DNA of 64,000 nucleotides, from the NCBI GenBank assembly GCA_015661075.1, contig JACVQJ010000001.1:15298-79297 (forward strand), written 5' to 3'. Below, piece by piece: positions 13,265 to 57,475 of the stretch (positions are counted from its first letter, which is position 1; the number at the start of each line of letters is the position of its first letter). Both the position numbers and the translations under genes were made by a program. Under the pieces are notes generated by a model. That model was not told the DNA's origin and ran no database searches. It was given only the letters and a program-made list of their open reading frames with translations. This DNA comes from Parachlamydiales bacterium. Lineage in GTDB: Bacteria; Chlamydiota; Chlamydiia; Chlamydiales; SM23-39.

Positions 13265-13410
13265 TTGAAGAACTCCTCCCTGAAAGGAGGAGATTCTTTA
13301 CGTAGCTTTTGGAGGCGGTGCGGCTAAAGCCGCATACCGCATCTCATAAAATAGCTTGCTTAGACCCACCCCTAAAGGGACGGGACTCTAGGCAAGCAGT
13401 GCCGTTCAAA
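13265..13410 (+). repeat. three-hairpin intergenic repeat, copy A
   Basis: TTGAAGAAC-[H1 13273-13292]-[H2 13315-13340]-[H3 13354-13397]-GTTCAAA. Related copies at 43357, 45308 and 57341. Confidence 0.75.
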
Positions 13411-13417
13411 GATCACT

Positions 13418-13444
13418 CCAGATTCGGCGATAAGCCGAATCTGG
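13418..13444 (-). terminator. hairpin immediately downstream of rplT
   Basis: ccagattcggc/gccgaatctgg forms an 11-bp stem with a 5-nt loop, 7 nt after the rplT stop. The U-tract is weak. Confidence 0.35.
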
Positions 13445-14583: not shown

Positions 14584-15744
14584 TCATCGCCCGCAATGAT
14601 CTCCAACAAGAGGAAATTCATCCATGCCCAGCGATTCATCGTTTATTTCTAGCAGAAGGGCCAGGTTTCTTTCAACCCACACAGTCGCAGAAACACTCCC
14701 CTTCGGCTTCGGCTCGCGTATGGCCGCTATGACCCATTCGCACTGCAAAGCGTCTCTTACGAGAAACTCTAGCTTCGACTCATCGCCGCCCGTCTCTTCA
14801 TCCACTTCCCAGCCCAAATTCTCAATAGAGCGCTCAATGACACTCTGCTTGCGGCTCTTTCCAGAAAAGCGGATCCGACTGGTAAAGCCCAAAATAGTAA
14901 GAGATTTATGAACGATTTGCAAGAAAGAAATACAATCCCGCTCAAGATCGACAAAAGAAATAATTTGCCATACGAGCGAATGACGATCATCCAGCAGGCC
15001 CCGCATCGCCCTCGATGGCTGTTCAAGCCAGGACAAATGCATCACGGCCATTTTCTGCTTTTTTTCGGAGATCAACGGATACTGGCGCTCATCCCCCTCC
15101 ACCTCGATCGCCATGGAAGAAAAATTTTTCCTCCACATGCCGCATAGCCGGCGCCGCACCTCGAGCCCATCGGGAAGCCAGATCCTCTCCCCATCGATGA
15201 CTTCCCAAAAACCTCGATCAGCCCCCCGCTTCATATGATCCAGATCGGGGAATTGCTGATAGAGCTTGAACCTCGCCTTCAAAGCATCTTTGGAAACATC
15301 TCCGACCCCGATGATTCTATACCGATCCCGGCCCCGGCTGGTTTGCTCGATGAGGCGCACAAACCCCGCCTCTCCCGTGTGCGTGTATGGCAACTCCTCG
15401 CACCAATCGACAAAAGAGCCGATCTGGATCAAAGGGACATACTGATCCTGGCCATGCACCTGGGCGGCCCGCCTGTTTTGGCCATGTTTTTTCAAAAACT
15501 CTGCTGCGCAAAAGGGAATCATTTCCATCACCCGAATCGGCCGTTTCTCCCTGATGATCTGGCGGATACGCTCTTCGAGCAAAACAAGGATTTCTGAAGA
15601 AAACGGCTGGGAAAAGGAAAAATCGCAGTAAAATCCATTACAGACAACTCCTACATCCTCGACGAATAGACCGGGAAGGAATTCGGAGAGGGCTGCCGCA
15701 AGAATGCGCGAGCCTAGGGTTTGGTGCGATGAGTGATTGACCAT
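14584..15744 (-). CDS. truncated, degenerate threonyl-tRNA synthetase-like protein
   Basis: Starts at the ThrRS N2 editing-domain motif region ('HSSHQTLGSRILAAALSEFLPG..NGFYCDF'). Continues into a shortened class II core ('DHMKRG..', 'LDDRH', 'LEFLVRDALQCEW'). Lacks the TGS domain, most of the motif 2 region, the 'HRA' zinc-ligand histidine and the anticodon-binding domain. Confidence 0.6.
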   Translation of the reverse strand: MVNHSSHQTLGSRILAAALSEFLPGLFVEDVGVVCNGFYCDFSFSQPFSSEILVLLEERIRQIIREKRPIRVMEMIPFCAAEFLKKHGQNRRAAQVHGQDQYVPLIQIGSFVDWCEELPYTHTGEAGFVRLIEQTSRGRDRYRIIGVGDVSKDALKARFKLYQQFPDLDHMKRGADRGFWEVIDGERIWLPDGLEVRRRLCGMWRKNFSSMAIEVEGDERQYPLISEKKQKMAVMHLSWLEQPSRAMRGLLDDRHSLVWQIISFVDLERDCISFLQIVHKSLTILGFTSRIRFSGKSRKQSVIERSIENLGWEVDEETGGDESKLEFLVRDALQCEWVIAAIREPKPKGSVSATVWVERNLALLLEINDESLGMDEFPLVGDHCGR

Positions 15745-36478: not shown

Positions 36479-42130
<5,652 letters not shown>

Positions 42131-42719: not shown

Positions 42720-43283
42720 TTAAGGACGTACAGTTTTCGTCCCTTCCCCCTTCGATTTCAACCTTTCAATTTCCTTCCGCAATTCTCGGTTTTCAGTTTC
42801 TGCAGCTATCTTGTCACGTTGATTTGTATGCAATAATGCATTAGTCAAACCGTCGATTTTTGCATCCAGTTTTTCCATTCCCCTATCGATTTTTGCATCC
42901 AGTTTTTCCATCGCTTGGTTTAGTTCTTGTTTAGTCACACGTCGATAAAAGGTATCAAAGAGCATACCAGATGCGCCGGCGAGTCCAAGAGTTGCCCCCA
43001 CAACTCTGATGCGGTTATTGACGTCCCAAGGTCCAGCAGTAAAACCGCCCGCAGGAGAATTAACTGTTGTTGCTCGTTGTACTGAAGAAAGAGTAATCCT
43101 TCTAGGATGCCTCCTCACAACGTTATCTTTAGGGGCTGTTTCTGTAAACCCATTGGCTTTTTTTAAAGTTGCAGCATTCATTCGACGGCTGCATTGGAGC
43201 ATTGATTGCAATCTTGAAGATCCCGAAAAGGACCCAAGTCTTGCGAGAGATGAAGAATACGTGGCATTGATTAATCGAATCAT
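42720..43283 (-). CDS. membrane/coiled-coil protein, paralogue 1 (11-residue 'MEKLDAKID' repeats x2)
   Basis: Paralogue of 47194..47787. Shared 'PAGGFTAGPWD', 'FYRRVTKQEL', 'NQRDKIAAET', 'NRELRKEIE'. Start set to the ATG preceded by GGAGG (43283), matching paralogue 2. Confidence 0.6.
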   Translation of the reverse strand: MIRLINATYSSSLARLGSFSGSSRLQSMLQCSRRMNAATLKKANGFTETAPKDNVVRRHPRRITLSSVQRATTVNSPAGGFTAGPWDVNNRIRVVGATLGLAGASGMLFDTFYRRVTKQELNQAMEKLDAKIDRGMEKLDAKIDGLTNALLHTNQRDKIAAETENRELRKEIERLKSKGEGTKTVRP

Positions 43284-43330
43284 AAGAACCTCCATGGAAT
43301 TTCACATTAGTGATATTACCACCTGTCACA
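42731..43330 (-). repeat. about 600-bp direct repeat, copy 1 (gene plus about 50 bp of 5' leader)
   Basis: Long identical runs with 47211-47832, for example cagtttctgcagctatcttgtcacgttgatttgtat. The boundaries are where similarity decays. Confidence 0.7.
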
Positions 43331-43356: not shown

Positions 43357-43499
43357 AAAAAATCTCCTCCTTGAAAGGAGGAGATTTTTTACGCAGCTTT
43401 TGGAGGCGGTGCGGCTAAAGCCGCATACCGCATCTCATAAAATAGCTTACCTAGACCCACCCCTAAAGAGGTGGGATTGCGGCAAGCAGTGCGTTCAAG
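43357..43499 (+). repeat. three-hairpin intergenic repeat, copy B
   Basis: H1 'tctcctcc ttgaaa ggaggaga' is flanked by A- and T-runs. The H2 region is identical to copy A. The H3 inner stem is CCCACC/GGTGGG. Ends in GTTCAAG. Confidence 0.75.
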
Positions 43500-43666: not shown

Positions 43667-43692
43667 TAGGGTTGGATAAAGGCAACATTAAA

Positions 43693-44025
43693 ATGATAAA
43701 GAATCCCGTTCAACTTTTGCCGCTGCCGGTGGAGCGAATGTTGAAGAAGTTTGGAGCCGATATTAAAATTGCACGTTTGAAGCGTGGGTTTACTGTTGAA
43801 ATGATGGCCCAAAGAATCGGTATTCATAGGTCGACCTATAGCAAGATAGAAAAAGGGAACCCAATGGTCGGATTGGGTGCTTACGCAGCCACATTATTCT
43901 CTTTGGGTTTTGGTACGCCTTTGGGTGATTTAATTGACCAGAGCAATGATGATACGGGGCTGTTGCTCGATTTAGAGAAACTGCCAAAAAGGGCTCGACC
44001 CAAAAAAAATCCGCAAGGTTTATGA
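43693..44025 (+). CDS. hipB: XRE-family HTH antitoxin (HipB-like)
   Basis: 'IKIARLKRGFTVEMMAQRIGIHRSTYSKIEKGNP' HTH_3 motif. ATGA overlap with hipA. Confidence 0.8.
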   Translation: MIKNPVQLLPLPVERMLKKFGADIKIARLKRGFTVEMMAQRIGIHRSTYSKIEKGNPMVGLGAYAATLFSLGFGTPLGDLIDQSNDDTGLLLDLEKLPKRARPKKNPQGL

Positions 44026-45311
44026 ACAGACAAATCAAAATTTATATTGGCGATGTGAAAAGACTTGTGGGAATTTTATTTTTCAACGCATCTGGCAATC
44101 GCGAGAGTAGTGGCTTGGAGTATAGTCCTGAGTGGATCGAATCTAACATAAGCTTTGAAATCGATCCGGCACTGCCTCTTGGACATGGACGCGCCTTTCG
44201 ATCAAAGAAAGAAGGGAGCTCTGTTTTTCATGGCGCTATTGCCGATTCGGAGCCCGATGGATGGGCCAGACAAGTGATTTTGCGAGCCAATGGCAAACGC
44301 CGAAAGGAGAAGAAAGATGGAATTTCTATTGACGATTCCCCGTTGACTTCTCTTGATTTCCTTTTGGCTGTTGACGATTTTTCTCGAATCGGTGCGCTTA
44401 GATTTCAGGATGAAAGTGGGGTGTTGCAACGCGAAGGGAGAAAGGGGAATCGAACAGCTCCGCCGCTCATTGAACTCGATTCCCTATTGCGAGCAACTCG
44501 AGCGGTTGAAACCGATACAGAAACAACTGCTGATTTAGAATACTTACGTGGTCGAGGGACTTCACTTGGGGGATTAAGACCTAAATGCACTGTGATCGAC
44601 CAAGATGGCTCCTTGTCAATTGGAAAATTTCCAAGTGTTCATGATTCCTATTCTGTAACAAAGGGTGAGGTGTTGGCCCTGCGCATAGCAGCTGCAGCGG
44701 GTATTCAAGCCGCCGAAGCCCGTATTGTAGAGAGCGATGGAACAGCGGTTGCTTTAATTAAACGGTTTGATCGGGGATCGCGTGGCGAGCGCATTCCTTA
44801 TCTTTCAGCTGCAACGCTTCTTGGTATAGAAGATAGTCACCAAGTCCACACTTATACAGAAATTGTCGATGCGCTTAAGCGATACAGCCCAGACTATATA
44901 GCAGATGCGGAAGAGTTATGGCGCAGGATTGCACTGACAATTTTGATCACCAATGTTGATGATCATATGCGCAATCATGGCTTTTTGCATGCGACTAAAA
45001 ATCAATGGCGTCTCTCACCGGCCTTTGATATCAATCCCTTTCCTGATAGACGGAGAGTACTTAAAACCTGGATTGCCGAATCAATGGGCGATGCTTCCAG
45101 CATTCAATCATTGATGGAGGCGGCTCCCTATTTTGGTATTGAATCCAGACGTGCTTGCGCGCTCCTTTCTACTGTCGAAGGAGCGGTTGCTCGTTGGCGA
45201 CAAATTGGAAAAGAGATCGGTATGAAGGCCTCAGAGCTCAATGCATTCGAAACAGCTTTTGAGCATGATGAGCGGCTTTCTGCTCGCCGAATCATCGAGC
45301 GGATAAATTGA
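44022..45311 (+). CDS. hipA: HipA-family serine/threonine kinase toxin
   Basis: HipA N-terminal coupling region, 'LGGLRPKCTV', and catalytic 'ILITNVDDHMRNHGFL'. Confidence 0.9.
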   Translation: MNRQIKIYIGDVKRLVGILFFNASGNRESSGLEYSPEWIESNISFEIDPALPLGHGRAFRSKKEGSSVFHGAIADSEPDGWARQVILRANGKRRKEKKDGISIDDSPLTSLDFLLAVDDFSRIGALRFQDESGVLQREGRKGNRTAPPLIELDSLLRATRAVETDTETTADLEYLRGRGTSLGGLRPKCTVIDQDGSLSIGKFPSVHDSYSVTKGEVLALRIAAAAGIQAAEARIVESDGTAVALIKRFDRGSRGERIPYLSAATLLGIEDSHQVHTYTEIVDALKRYSPDYIADAEELWRRIALTILITNVDDHMRNHGFLHATKNQWRLSPAFDINPFPDRRRVLKTWIAESMGDASSIQSLMEAAPYFGIESRRACALLSTVEGAVARWRQIGKEIGMKASELNAFETAFEHDERLSARRIIERIN

Positions 45312-45446
45312 ACCCCTCCTTCAAAAGGAGGGGATTCTTTCTCCGCTTAAGGATGCGGTGCGGCAAAGCCGCATACCGCAGAATAAAATAGCTTGCCTAG
45401 ACCACCCCTTATGGGGTGGGACTCTAGGCAAGCAGTGCGTTCAAAT
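45308..45446 (+). repeat. three-hairpin intergenic repeat, copy C
   Basis: TTGAAC-[CCCCTCC/GGAGGGG]-[GCGGC aaa GCCGC]-[GCTTGCCTAG..CCACCCC ttat GGGGTGG..CTAGGCAAGC]-GTTCAAAT. The terminal repeats contain the TGA stops of hipA and of the convergent ORF. Confidence 0.75.
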
Positions 45447-45812: not shown

Positions 45813-45896
45813 AAATGGCCGTATTCCTTGATTTTTGGCCGTATTTATATTAAAATGGCCGTATATGAGCGAAAAACCAAAAAAAATGGCCGTATT
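45813..45896 (+). promoter_or_regulatory. four direct repeats (A/T)(A/T)(A/T)TGGCCGTAT phased 20, 20 and 31 bp apart
   Basis: TGGCCGTAT starts at 45816, 45836, 45856 and 45887. Lies in the divergent region between 45441..45755(-) and the Fic-like gene. Confidence 0.45.
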
Positions 45897-47202
45897 ACAT
45901 CAATTGAGTCTTGAGTCAGACCCAATCTGCCTCAATGAAATTCTTGAAAAATTGGGCCAAGGATACGTCGAACGGAGCGTGCGAAGGTGGCTGGCCGAAA
46001 TGATTCAAGAAGGACTAGTTGAAAAAATCGGAAATAAACGAGGCACGAAATATCGAGTTCTCCAACGAGAGAATAGGTCTATAGCAAGCTGCTTTGGACC
46101 GGAAAGTCTCAAAATTATTGCTGTTGTAAGACGTCCCCTTTACGAAAGAGTGCCCGTTGCTTATGCAGACCACTGGTTCGATGCCTATCATCCCAACAAG
46201 GATTTCTATCTTTCTCCTGCATACCGGGCACAGCTCTTTGAGGCCGGAAAACGGTCCCAAAATGAAGAACCGGCCGGTACGTACGCACATCAAATTTTCA
46301 ATCGATTACTCATCGATCTTTCCTACAATTCCTCTCGACTAGAAGGAAACACCTATTCGTTATTAGATACACAGAAACTGCTTTTGGAAGGAGCGGAAGC
46401 GGAAGGAAAGCTGGATGAAGAAAAAATCATGATTCTCAATCACAAAGAAGCCATACGTTATTTAGTTGATAATGCTTCCAAGCTAGATGTAAGCACACAA
46501 ACAATTAGTACTCTTCATTTTCTCCTTTCTGACGGACTAGTGGAAACACGTTTTGCGGGAAAAGTAAGAGATTTTGGTGTTCGCATTGGAGGATCGACCT
46601 ATGTGCCTTTTGAAGATGGGAAACAATTGCAGAAAAGATTGGATCGAATTGCCGAAAAAGCTGCGATTATTAAGGACCCTTTCGAGCAAAGTATTTTTTT
46701 GTTGATACATATTACTTATTTGCAAGCCTTTTCAGATGTAAATAAACGAACAGCGCGACTCAGCGCAAACATTTCTCTTATTAAATACAATTTAGTGCCC
46801 TTATCATTTAGCGATGTGGATCGGGACGATTATATTTCAGCGGTGATCGCAATCTATGAATTGCAAAAAGTTCGTCCAATGATTGACTTATTTATATTTT
46901 CCTACATGCGCACCTGTGCAATGTATGATTCTACTGTAAAATCGATCGGTTTTGACGCAATACGCGTTCGATATCGGCAGCAAAGACGCGCTATCATTCG
47001 TGACATTATTCTTAAGAAATTAAAAGGATCCGCCATGCAGAAATTCATACTCACTTCTGCTAAATTGATCCAGGGAAACGATCGAAAATCTTTTATAGAA
47101 GATGTCACAGAAGATCTCCATGAACTCGATCAAAACCGCATTGCAGGACTTGGCATCACGCCAGAAGAGCTGGCTGCCTGGAAACATTCATTTTTAAAAT
47201 GA
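45865..47202 (+). CDS. wHTH-Fic family protein with degenerate active-site motif
   Basis: N-terminal wHTH ('ERSVRRWLAEMIQEGLVEKIGNKRGTKYRV') and inhibitory 'SSRLEGN'. The Fic motif reads 'QAFSDVNKRTAR' (46723-46758) instead of HxFx(D/E)GNGRxxR. Start set to ATG 45865; ATG 45887 is also possible. Confidence 0.75.
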   Translation: MSEKPKKMAVLHQLSLESDPICLNEILEKLGQGYVERSVRRWLAEMIQEGLVEKIGNKRGTKYRVLQRENRSIASCFGPESLKIIAVVRRPLYERVPVAYADHWFDAYHPNKDFYLSPAYRAQLFEAGKRSQNEEPAGTYAHQIFNRLLIDLSYNSSRLEGNTYSLLDTQKLLLEGAEAEGKLDEEKIMILNHKEAIRYLVDNASKLDVSTQTISTLHFLLSDGLVETRFAGKVRDFGVRIGGSTYVPFEDGKQLQKRLDRIAEKAAIIKDPFEQSIFLLIHITYLQAFSDVNKRTARLSANISLIKYNLVPLSFSDVDRDDYISAVIAIYELQKVRPMIDLFIFSYMRTCAMYDSTVKSIGFDAIRVRYRQQRRAIIRDIILKKLKGSAMQKFILTSAKLIQGNDRKSFIEDVTEDLHELDQNRIAGLGITPEELAAWKHSFLK

Positions 47203-47787
47203 TGAACGCACTGTTTTCGTCTCTTCCCCCTTCGATTTCAAGCTTTCAATTTCCTTACGCAATTCTCGGTTGTCAGTTTCTGCAGCTATCTTGTCACGTT
47301 GATTTGTATACAATAATGCATTAGTCAAACCGTCGATTTTTGCACCCAGTTTTTCCATTCCCTTATCGATTTTTGCATCCAATTTTCCAATTTCCTTATC
47401 GATTTTTGCATCCAGTTTTTCCATCGCTTGCTGTAGTTCTTGTTTAGTCACACGTCGATAAAAGATATCAAAGAGCATACCAGCGGCGACGACGACGCCA
47501 AGGGTTGCCCCCACATCCCCGATACAGTTATTGGCATCCCAAGGTCCGGCAGTAAAACCGCCTGCAGGAGGATTAACAGTTTTTTCTGATCTTACTGGAG
47601 ATAAAGTAACCCTGCGAGGAAGAGTGTTTGGAAGGTTTTTCATAACGTCATCTTTATAGGCCTTTTCTGAAATTTTAGTACTCATTCGACGACTGAACAG
47701 GAGCATTGATTGCAATCTTGAAGATCCCAAAAGGGACCCAGGTCTTGCGAAAGATGGAAAATGCGCGGCATTGATTAACCGAATCAT
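47194..47787 (-). CDS. membrane/coiled-coil protein, paralogue 2 (11-residue repeats x3)
   Basis: Paralogue of 42720..43283 with GGAGG 5 nt before the ATG. Carries one extra 33-bp repeat unit. The 3' end overlaps the Fic-like gene by 9 nt. Confidence 0.6.
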   Translation of the reverse strand: MIRLINAAHFPSFARPGSLLGSSRLQSMLLFSRRMSTKISEKAYKDDVMKNLPNTLPRRVTLSPVRSEKTVNPPAGGFTAGPWDANNCIGDVGATLGVVVAAGMLFDIFYRRVTKQELQQAMEKLDAKIDKEIGKLDAKIDKGMEKLGAKIDGLTNALLYTNQRDKIAAETDNRELRKEIESLKSKGEETKTVRSSF

Positions 47788-47832
47788 AAGAACCTCCTGG
47801 AATTAAACAATAGTGATATTACCAACTTGTCT
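47211..47832 (-). repeat. about 600-bp direct repeat, copy 2
   Basis: See copy 1 at 42731-43330. Same orientation, about 4.5 kb apart. Confidence 0.7.
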
Positions 47833-57340: not shown

Positions 57341-57475
57341 TTGAAGAACTCCTTCCTAAAGGAAGGAGATTCTTCGACAGTTAATGGCGGGCGCTTAAAA
57401 GCGCCCGATCAAATAAATAGCCCGGCTTACCCGCCCCTGAAGGAGTGGGATTGCGCTTCGAGCCAGCTGTTCAAC
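57341..57475 (+). repeat. three-hairpin intergenic repeat, copy D (most diverged)
   Basis: TTGAAGAAC-[CTCCTTCC taaa GGAAGGAG]-[CGGGCGC ttaaaa GCGCCCG]-[H3-like]-GTTCAAC. Same architecture as copies A-C with different stem sequences. Confidence 0.6.

Follow-up and report, generated by a model that had tools for sequence, protein, structure and literature searches.

Three-hairpin repeats in an uncultured chlamydial genome: very probably protein-less, palindrome-associated derivatives of an IS605-group insertion sequence

Palindrome-associated transposable elements (PATEs) and other ends-only elements that are mobilised in trans have been documented for the IS200/IS605 family of insertion sequences (PMC10055086, PMC7290912, PMC3119063). 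PATEs have been reported in Haloquadratum walsbyi, Halanaerobium hydrogeniformans and Geobacillus stearothermophilus (PMC3119063, PMC7290912, PMC10055086), and the terminal hairpins of the family, which were once regarded as terminators, serve transposition (PMC7290912). Here we analysed a 64-kb stretch of DNA from a Parachlamydiales bacterium (contig JACVQJ010000001.1; hereafter the window, to which all position numbers refer), which contains four copies of an intergenic repeat of about 140 nt with three hairpins, H1, H2 and H3. Each repeat is very probably a protein-less deletion derivative of a member of the IS605 group, i.e. a PATE. It is a known kind of selfish DNA, neither a new RNA class nor a new class of mobile element.

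Like the described PATEs, the window element has no open reading frame (ORF), lies 3′ of a constant pentanucleotide without having duplicated its target and occurs in many copies per genome, and its mobilisation in trans by a Y1 TnpA is presumed. It differs from them in being shorter (~140 nt, against ~271 nt for the Halanaerobium PATE and a 461-bp class in a Parachlamydiaceae genome), in its very high copy number for a chlamydial genome, in comprising three or more subfamilies between which the H2 and basal-stem sequences are exchanged, and in that no cognate transposase was seen in 271 kb of host DNA. With the IS605 group (IS605, IS608, ISDra2 and an unnamed Aeromonas plasmid element) it shares the left end (LE) TTGAA↓C...GCAAT-hairpin-TCAAG, the arrow marking the cleavage site, a right end (RE) laid out as a hairpin, 3 nt and TTCA(A/C)↓, and the single-strand logic, and its hairpin-to-cleavage spacing is like that of IS608, which is about 19 and 10 nt. 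Unlike the IS605 group, it carries neither tnpA nor tnpB, its LE and RE hairpins are not identical, and its target, TTGAA, is not the TTAC of IS608 or the TTGAT of ISDra2. In Salmonella IS200, a left-end palindrome acts as a transcription terminator and is followed by an interior stem-loop. Part of this picture recurs in PMC7290912. The window element likewise has a perfect terminal palindrome that resembles a terminator, with a second internal stem-loop after it; however, its terminator-like hairpin is the right end beside tnpB rather than the end upstream of tnpA, and its terminator activity is only predicted. BOX, RUP, Correia and ERIC repeats are comparable in being modular, intergenic hairpins of ~100–150 nt that affect their neighbours via terminators or stop codons, but they have terminal inverted repeats and in some cases (Correia) target duplications, and no link to Y1 transposase ends has been demonstrated for them.

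The first-pass annotation, made from the letters alone, had described four copies in one orientation, and these are indeed present, beginning at 13265, 43357, 45308 and 57341 on the plus strand and spanning 133–145 nt; a degenerate pattern of their shared blocks recovers only these four sites in the window, with 0.00 expected from 100 shuffles. The terminal architecture that it described as common to all was found in the four copies, except that in copy B the tip TTGAAGAAC is replaced by AAAAAAT and the right cleavage site is gone. The copies have no coding capacity, and only spurious read-through ORFs span the element. The top (active) strand of the transposon corresponds to the minus strand of the window. 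Accordingly, the GTTCAA that ends each copy on the plus strand is the TTGAA target plus the first LE base, and the left-hand TTGAAGAAC is the RE tip.

The family assignment begins with the left end. A pattern of the H3 module (ACCCNCCCCTNAAGGNGNGGGATTGCG...GTTC) matched chlamydial metagenome-assembled genomes (MAGs) and a complete Aeromonas plasmid. On the plasmid (L241), the module lies directly after a 154-aa ORF with the Pfam domain Y1_Tnp (E = 1.7e-43), which is divergent from a tnpB gene, the two being labelled in RefSeq as 'IS200/IS605 family transposase' (WP_202155017.1) and 'RNA-guided endonuclease TnpB' (WP_101617946.1). In a Parachlamydiaceae MAG (L224, L226), the module also follows a Y1 TnpA gene (E = 7e-41), the product of which is 65% identical to the Aeromonas TnpA. 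This MAG, MFD09286.bin.2.11 (L221–L254), yielded 19 LE matches, 16 of them pairable with an RE, in size classes of ~2013 bp (tnpA and tnpB), 1549 bp (tnpB only) and 452–471 bp (the two ends with a residual tnpB 3′ end). On the strand that reads tnpB from left to right, every LE of this family begins TTGAA↓C, save two cut by the end of the locus, and the 16 paired copies end in TAGTTCAC↓, with unrelated flanks and no duplication. Further TnpA homologues in metagenomes have the same divergent tnpB–tnpA pair and the same end. The LE homology extends to the tnpA/tnpB elements L224, L226, L241/L263, L259 and L262, and the LE start given above is common to the Parachlamydiaceae MAG, metagenome contigs and Aeromonas plasmids. 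In an alignment of 12 LEs, 91.6% of cells pair in the nested hairpin, against 34–50% with slid partners, and the basal stems vary in a compensatory manner (GCTTGC/GCAAGC, GCTCG/CGAGC, GCTCAC/GTGAGC and CCCGC/GCGGG). By homology, H3 is therefore identified as an IS605-group left end.

In the L224 copy, tnpB carries a frameshift. The LE module of the chlamydial elements is nearly identical to that of an IS605-type element found on large plasmids of Aeromonas and Shewanella, including pK520-KPC (L241, L263), and a 72%-identical relative adjoins tetR(C) on many small plasmids.

At the opposite end, the top strand of the window element reads AAGAAT-CTCCTCC-TTTCAA-GGAGGAG-TTCTTCAA↓. The arrangement AAGAAT-CTCCTyC-loop-GGAGGAG, 3 nt and (G/T)TCAA↓ coincides with the tnpB 3′ end or lies shortly beyond it in a Methanolobus element (L213), where tnpA is followed in tandem by tnpB, and in elements of a Desulfobacterium MAG and a Streptomyces genome (L207 and L220). 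Since the same layout follows tnpB in these three IS605 elements, H1 is recognised, by its sequence and position, as the right-end hairpin. They were caught with an H1-only pattern in GTDB genomes, a set of species representatives that lacks the source genome, and the same pattern matched four chlamydial MAG loci; most of its matches were unrelated terminator-like hairpins in many phyla. In this set, the first exact H2 pattern and the first strict full-length pattern gave 0 matches, the latter demanding AAATAGC, which is missing from some MAG copies.

The spacing of the end hairpins indicates which strand is active. In the full L224 element, both end hairpins are identical (CCCTCTCC-TTTA-GGGGAGGG), one lying 16 nt past the TTGAA cleavage site and the other 8 nt before the terminus, and in the window element the cleavage site is 16–18 nt ahead of the LE hairpin and the RE hairpin ~8 nt ahead of its own cleavage site. 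The end spacing in L224 makes the active strand the one that reads tnpB, which is the minus strand of the window. A wobble test of the LE hairpin agrees with the minus strand being active: pairing of the apical hairpin is 97.8% on the minus strand versus 93.5% on the plus strand among 35 copies, and 98.1% versus 91.6% across families, the A·C mismatches of the plus strand being G·T pairs on the minus strand. Over all stems, the test of G·U versus A·C gave 31 versus 25, the LE apical hairpin alone being informative. A first reading, in which the top strand was the plus strand with an IS200-like LE at position ~785 of L241, was dropped; it was ruled out by the divergent Aeromonas tnpB, by the identical hairpins and spacing in L224 and by the arrangement in L213.

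Between the two ends, H2 sits at the place that, in L224 and L262, is taken by a hairpin across the tnpB stop codon, and its top strand reads an Ala-rich tail, '...AALAAPPPKAA' followed by a stop, like the TnpB ends of these two elements. From its position and this reading, H2 is probably a leftover of the tnpB 3′ end. A guide-RNA-bearing PATE could be considered at this point, as a supplement to the PATE assignment: H2 and H1 would preserve, when read on the minus strand, a functional piece of the TnpB omega-RNA scaffold, and each copy would express a guide from its 3′ flank for use in trans by a TnpB nuclease. H1-type hairpins do stand directly at the tnpB 3′ end in IS605 relatives, H2 resembles the hairpin spanning the tnpB stop codon, the tnpB 3′ end is retained in the 461-bp PATEs of the Parachlamydiaceae MAG, and omega-RNAs are commonly encoded in PATEs (PMC10055086). 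Nevertheless, both the scaffold and the expressed guide appear improbable to us, as only ~85 nt are retained upstream of the right end, less than the length of characterised omega-RNA scaffolds, no omega-RNA family of Rfam was matched, no tnpB was found in 271 kb of the organism's DNA, and no promoter-like site was seen in the regions scanned near copies A and C. A broader version, in which the hundred-odd copies are not inert, is a long shot as well: either H2 and H1 would form minimal omega-RNA genes with 16–20 nt of flank as guides, or H1 would have been co-opted genome-wide as a bidirectional terminator. In the former case, the guides would serve a TnpB, from another part of the genome or from a co-infecting element, for homing or gene regulation in an obligate intracellular bacterium.

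For the PATE itself, the order on the top strand is the TTGAA target, an LE of 16–18 nt followed by H3, then H2, and an RE consisting of H1 and the TTCTTCAA cleavage site. By analogy with IS608 and ISDra2, a TnpA of the Y1 (HUH) type, supplied in trans, would bind the two subterminal hairpins on single-stranded DNA and cut 3′ of TTGAA and 3′ of TTCAA, and the excised strand would re-insert 3′ of another TTGAA, the target not being duplicated. The hairpins are accordingly best explained, on the same analogy, as single-stranded-DNA recognition sites for a Y1 TnpA, and we propose that the stems but not the stem sequences are kept because TnpA recognises hairpins on single-stranded DNA. Direct evidence supports the homology of the ends and, as described below, the target motif, the missing target duplication, the number of copies, their nesting and the lack of the element in relatives.

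The insertion behaviour is that of a mobile element. In 78 relatives, the rplT–pheS spacer that holds copy A in the window measures −3 to 104 nt (median ~35) and lacks the element; the spacer in the window is 202 nt long, equal to ~56 nt plus the element. Copies lie between convergent, tandem or divergent genes and may point either way with respect to them, and several overlap stop codons. In copy C, the TGA stops of the two convergent ORFs are both supplied by the element's termini. Target-site duplications were sought at ~33 copies and none was found, the flanks being unrelated. TTGAA adjoins the LE in 27 of these ~33 copies and the remainder differ mostly in the outermost base, which is variable in five of ~33, as expected of a target. 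The inverted termini measure only 5 nt, and long terminal inverted repeats are absent.

These observations also bear on a classical miniature inverted-repeat transposable element (MITE) of a DDE-transposase family, or a repetitive extragenic palindrome (REP/BIME) moved by a RAYT. The short inverted termini TTGAA...TTCAA and the small size, high copy number and intergenic position would fit such elements. However, either identity is extremely unlikely: no target-site duplication was seen, the 5-nt inverted termini compare with ~10 bp or more in classical MITEs, there is no GTAG- or CGTC-headed palindrome of 20–40 nt but a set of three unlike hairpins that always follow each other in the same order, the ends are homologues of those that flank Y1 TnpA and TnpB genes in IS605 elements, and the true MITEs in the same loci, with CTAG or TA duplications, look quite different. 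The label 'REP/MITE-like' in the first-pass annotation was hence apt as far as a dispersed, high-copy, non-coding mobile derivative is concerned, and wrong in the narrow sense of either class, the element having neither the REP head motif nor the long inverted repeats and duplications of a MITE. An IS91-type rolling-circle element, with GTTC as target, was another candidate and was dropped after the linkage to Y1 TnpA.

Further evidence of mobility comes from copies inserted into one another. The canonical H1 loop on the plus strand is TTGAAA and thus holds the TTGAA target. Nested copies in L096, L103, L101, L100 and L090 are consistent with insertion at TTGAA↓A in a resident H1 loop, and the same probably holds for the right flank of copy B; every nested copy is in opposite orientation because the H1 loop carries the family's own target. 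In copy B, GAAGGAGTTCAA comes directly after the target motif and forms one arm of an H1-like hairpin in reverse orientation, suggestive of nesting. Truncated copies are present, and others are interrupted by unrelated MITEs with CTAG or TA duplications. One such MITE, of ~160 bp, with inverted repeats of ~22 bp (CGGGAGTTTACAAGTTATTTTG...) and a CTAG duplication, lies at L094:4968–5128 inside the H3 3′ arm of a truncated copy, and a remnant of it was seen at L082:8215–8235. Another, with inverted repeats ACCGAAAATGAYTCAAAAGTTGG and a TA duplication, splits an element copy in a different chlamydial MAG (L152:1690–1826).

The hairpins and paired changes of the first-pass annotation were confirmed. 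Whichever strand is folded, three hairpins form in each copy (z-scores of −4.2 to −9.2), and a fold as good was reached by 0 of 200 shuffles. The paired substitutions that it listed are present: H1 occurs as CTCCTCC/GGAGGAG, CCCCTCC/GGAGGGG and CTCCTTCC/GGAAGGAG, H2 as GCGGC/GCCGC versus CGGGCGC/GCGCCCG, and the H3 apex is also variable. In copy A, H3 combines a basal stem GCTTGC/GCAAGC with an apical TnpA-type hairpin CCCACCCC/GGGACGGG, and copy D has the H2 hairpin CGGGCGC-TTAAAA-GCGCCCG and an H3 basal stem GCxCG/CGAGC. The covariation extends to a wider set of 29 copies, in which the stems pair in 95.6% of cells, against 45–52% with slid partners, and two-sided changes occur at ten pairs, the observed score being reached by 0 of 500 shuffles. 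The hairpins are under selection. One difference, 'ctctag' versus 'ttgcg' in the H3 3′ arm, is not compensatory and alters an internal loop. The proposed closure of the three hairpins into a cloverleaf by GAAC...GTTC found no support, as the TTGAA/TTCAA closing stem is absent from every minimum-energy fold and competes with the outer H1 stem; the two repeats are the right-end cleavage motif and the TTGAA target.

Strong folds and compensatory stem changes are also what a structured RNA module would display, be it a cis-regulator, a terminator/attenuator or a multicopy small RNA, with copy A as a pheM-like leader of pheS. In addition, H1 with its T-run fits the intrinsic terminator consensus, in copy A on the plus strand and in copy C in both directions, and copy A does lie inside the rplT–pheS operon, as the first-pass annotation had stated on both counts. 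We nevertheless consider an RNA module very unlikely. No Rfam match was found for the copies: up to E = 10 nothing relevant appeared, in line with the earlier failure to recognise a family, the best sub-threshold match scoring 24 bits against a threshold of 55, and gathering scores in the window were reached only by two tRNAs. All orientations and all kinds of intergenic setting are represented, divergent promoter regions among them; the hairpin and T-run of copy A are antisense to the rplT–pheS operon; the 78 orthologous spacers lack the element; nested and decayed copies exist; and the ends are transposon ends. The analogy with the pheM attenuator fails on the same grounds, the same element being present at no fewer than 35 unrelated loci and absent from the spacer of the 78 relatives. 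What had been taken for an unrecognised structured-RNA module thus has the ends of an IS200/IS605 insertion sequence, and at the level of the element class it is an already described repeat. Side effects of the terminator-like H1 on adjacent genes are plausible, judging by its sequence.

The PATE is widespread in the host and its relatives. The PheS of the window is at most 82% identical to that of any species representative, its best matches all being chlamydial MAGs, and the DNA of the organism occurs in subsurface and freshwater metagenomes. The strict pattern identified 27 further stretches in metagenome contigs. A covariance model, of the kind that the first-pass annotation had suggested, was built from 29 copies and found 35 clear copies in 272 kb (window and metagenome contigs), with further matches in at least eight chlamydial MAGs, the closest relative of the window organism among them. 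Metagenome contigs break off inside the element. In contigs of the source runs, the summed assembler depth on copy A is 11–12 in the flanks and rises to 2119 in H1, 1333 and 705 in the H2 region and 410 in H3, H1 being the most widely common module. The depth ratio suggests roughly 35–185 copies at ≥85% identity, part of which depth may stem from other organisms. The element therefore appears to have been amplified to roughly this number in an uncultured chlamydial genome, mostly at intergenic sites. The copies fall into at least three subfamilies (types I, II and III), and chimeras between subfamilies occur.

Matches of 89 and 61 bits were found in MAGs labelled Deltaproteobacteria and Nitrospiria (L231, L232) and may be binning errors or transfer between phyla. 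A short RE tip, TTGAAC, stands in place of TTGAAGAAC in four copies of different subfamilies (45308–45313, L094, L102 and L098; compare 13265–13273), each after an A; these tips may have arisen by alternative cleavage at the GAA repeat and not by separate deletions. An unrelated three-hairpin repeat is present in other chlamydial MAGs (L028:712–841, L152:3063–3205); this second type reads CCCCGCCC-TAAAG-GACGGGG, then GGGAGGAG-TTTCGA-ACTCCTCCC, then CCCGGCCC-TAAAG-GACCGGG.

Several observations weigh against the PATE assignment. No autonomous element with both the exact LE and the exact RE was found, and the homologies of the two ends come from different IS605 relatives. Neither tnpA nor tnpB is present in the 271 kb that comprise the 64-kb window and 207 kb from the same or a near-identical organism (L081–L109), a search for multi-copy ORFs in the sampled loci revealed no transposase, and the source metagenome runs (X1–X4) contained nothing with ≥80% nucleotide identity to the tnpA of the Parachlamydiaceae element (L224). 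The LE and RE hairpins of the PATE differ in sequence, whereas those of IS608 are nearly identical, a departure that the Aeromonas element shares. A look-up of the exact PheS protein recovered contigs with the same arrangement and no strain-level empty site. The G-rich strand is the lagging-strand template, which the IS200/IS605 family prefers; GC skew is negative throughout the window and the top strands of all four copies lie on the G-rich strand, but over the wider set the bias is weak (30 of 46 copies, p = 0.054, with local skew as a noisy proxy).

The paralogous 'empty site' of copy B, a duplicate at 47.8 kb, has diverged too far, the 'empty site' of the L088 copy is a split gene that is not a simple insertion, and an element in the rRNA operon of L092 was ruled out.

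Table 1. Coordinates of the four repeat copies, their parts and a neighbouring hairpin in the window (↓, cleavage site)
Feature	Position	Strand	Remarks
Copy A, element proper, type I	13265..13404	-	Covariance model 148 bits; refined whole 13265-13409
Copy A, TTCAA (plus strand); on the top strand, the TTGAA target/cleavage pentanucleotide that precedes the left end	13405..13409	-	
Copy A, H1 inner hairpin CTCCTCC-CTGAAA-GGAGGAG, right-end hairpin, then TTCTTCAA↓ on the top strand	13273..13292	-	
Copy A, H2 hairpin GCGG-T-GCGGC-TAAA-GCCGC-ATA-CCGC, probable remnant of tnpB 3′-end hairpin	13315..13340	-	
Copy A, H3 nested hairpin, left-end module	13354..13397	-	
Copy B, type I	43357..43493	-	158 bits; refined whole 43357-43498
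Copy B, TTCAA target motif	43494..43498	-	Followed by GAAGGAGTTCAA
Copy C, type I, H1 CCCCTCC, short tip TTGAAC	45308..45439	-	136 bits; refined whole 45308-45444
Copy C, TTCAA target motif	45440..45444	-	Holds TGA stop (45441-45443, minus strand) of convergent 104-aa ORF
Copy D, type II subfamily	57341..57469	-	114 bits; refined whole 57341-57474
Copy D, TTCAA target motif	57470..57474	-	
Separate hairpin CCAGATTCGGC-TTATC-GCCGAATCTGG, directly after rplT, outside the element	13418..13444	-	Probably native rplT-proximal terminator-like hairpin

As for the surroundings of the four copies, copy A is placed between rplT and pheS, as had been described before and as the Pfam domains Ribosomal_L20 and PheS confirm; both genes are on the minus strand, and the top strand of the element is co-directional with the operon. 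The separate hairpin beside rplT (Table 1) has a similar counterpart in the closest relative. Directly upstream of infC-rpmI-rplT, in the usual place of thrS, lies a 386-aa ORF (14584–15744, minus strand) that matched no Pfam family, either in this analysis or in the public gene call. Copy B occupies a divergent intergenic region upstream of a hipB-like gene, the hipA-like gene takes its TGA stop (45309–45311) from the tip of copy C, and copy D lies between convergent NUDIX and fumarase genes. The hipB/hipA-like toxin–antitoxin pair (43672–45311) and a Fic-domain gene (45835–47202) are flanked by paralogous segments (42726–43324 and 47206–47827; 85–94% identical), each with an ORF of 191 or 197 aa, the 191-aa one having no Pfam match. 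In another part of the window (36500–41900), four repeat families (D3, D6, D9 and D11) recur at spacings of ~1.0 and 1.8 kb and resemble nucleotide-binding motifs, as of two double-ABC ATPase genes in tandem that may be uvrA-like.

For chlamydial genomics, the repeat is of practical consequence: it breaks metagenome assemblies, the contigs ending within it, and it affects annotation through spurious ORFs and altered gene ends, as in the stop codon of the hipA-like gene. The RE hairpin loop that carries the family's own target adds a mechanistic detail, and the LE module is common to chlamydial elements and to IS605 elements of Aeromonas plasmids. Single-strand transposons of the IS200/IS605 family and their ends-only derivatives, to which the repeat very probably belongs, are strongly expanded in environmental Chlamydiota.

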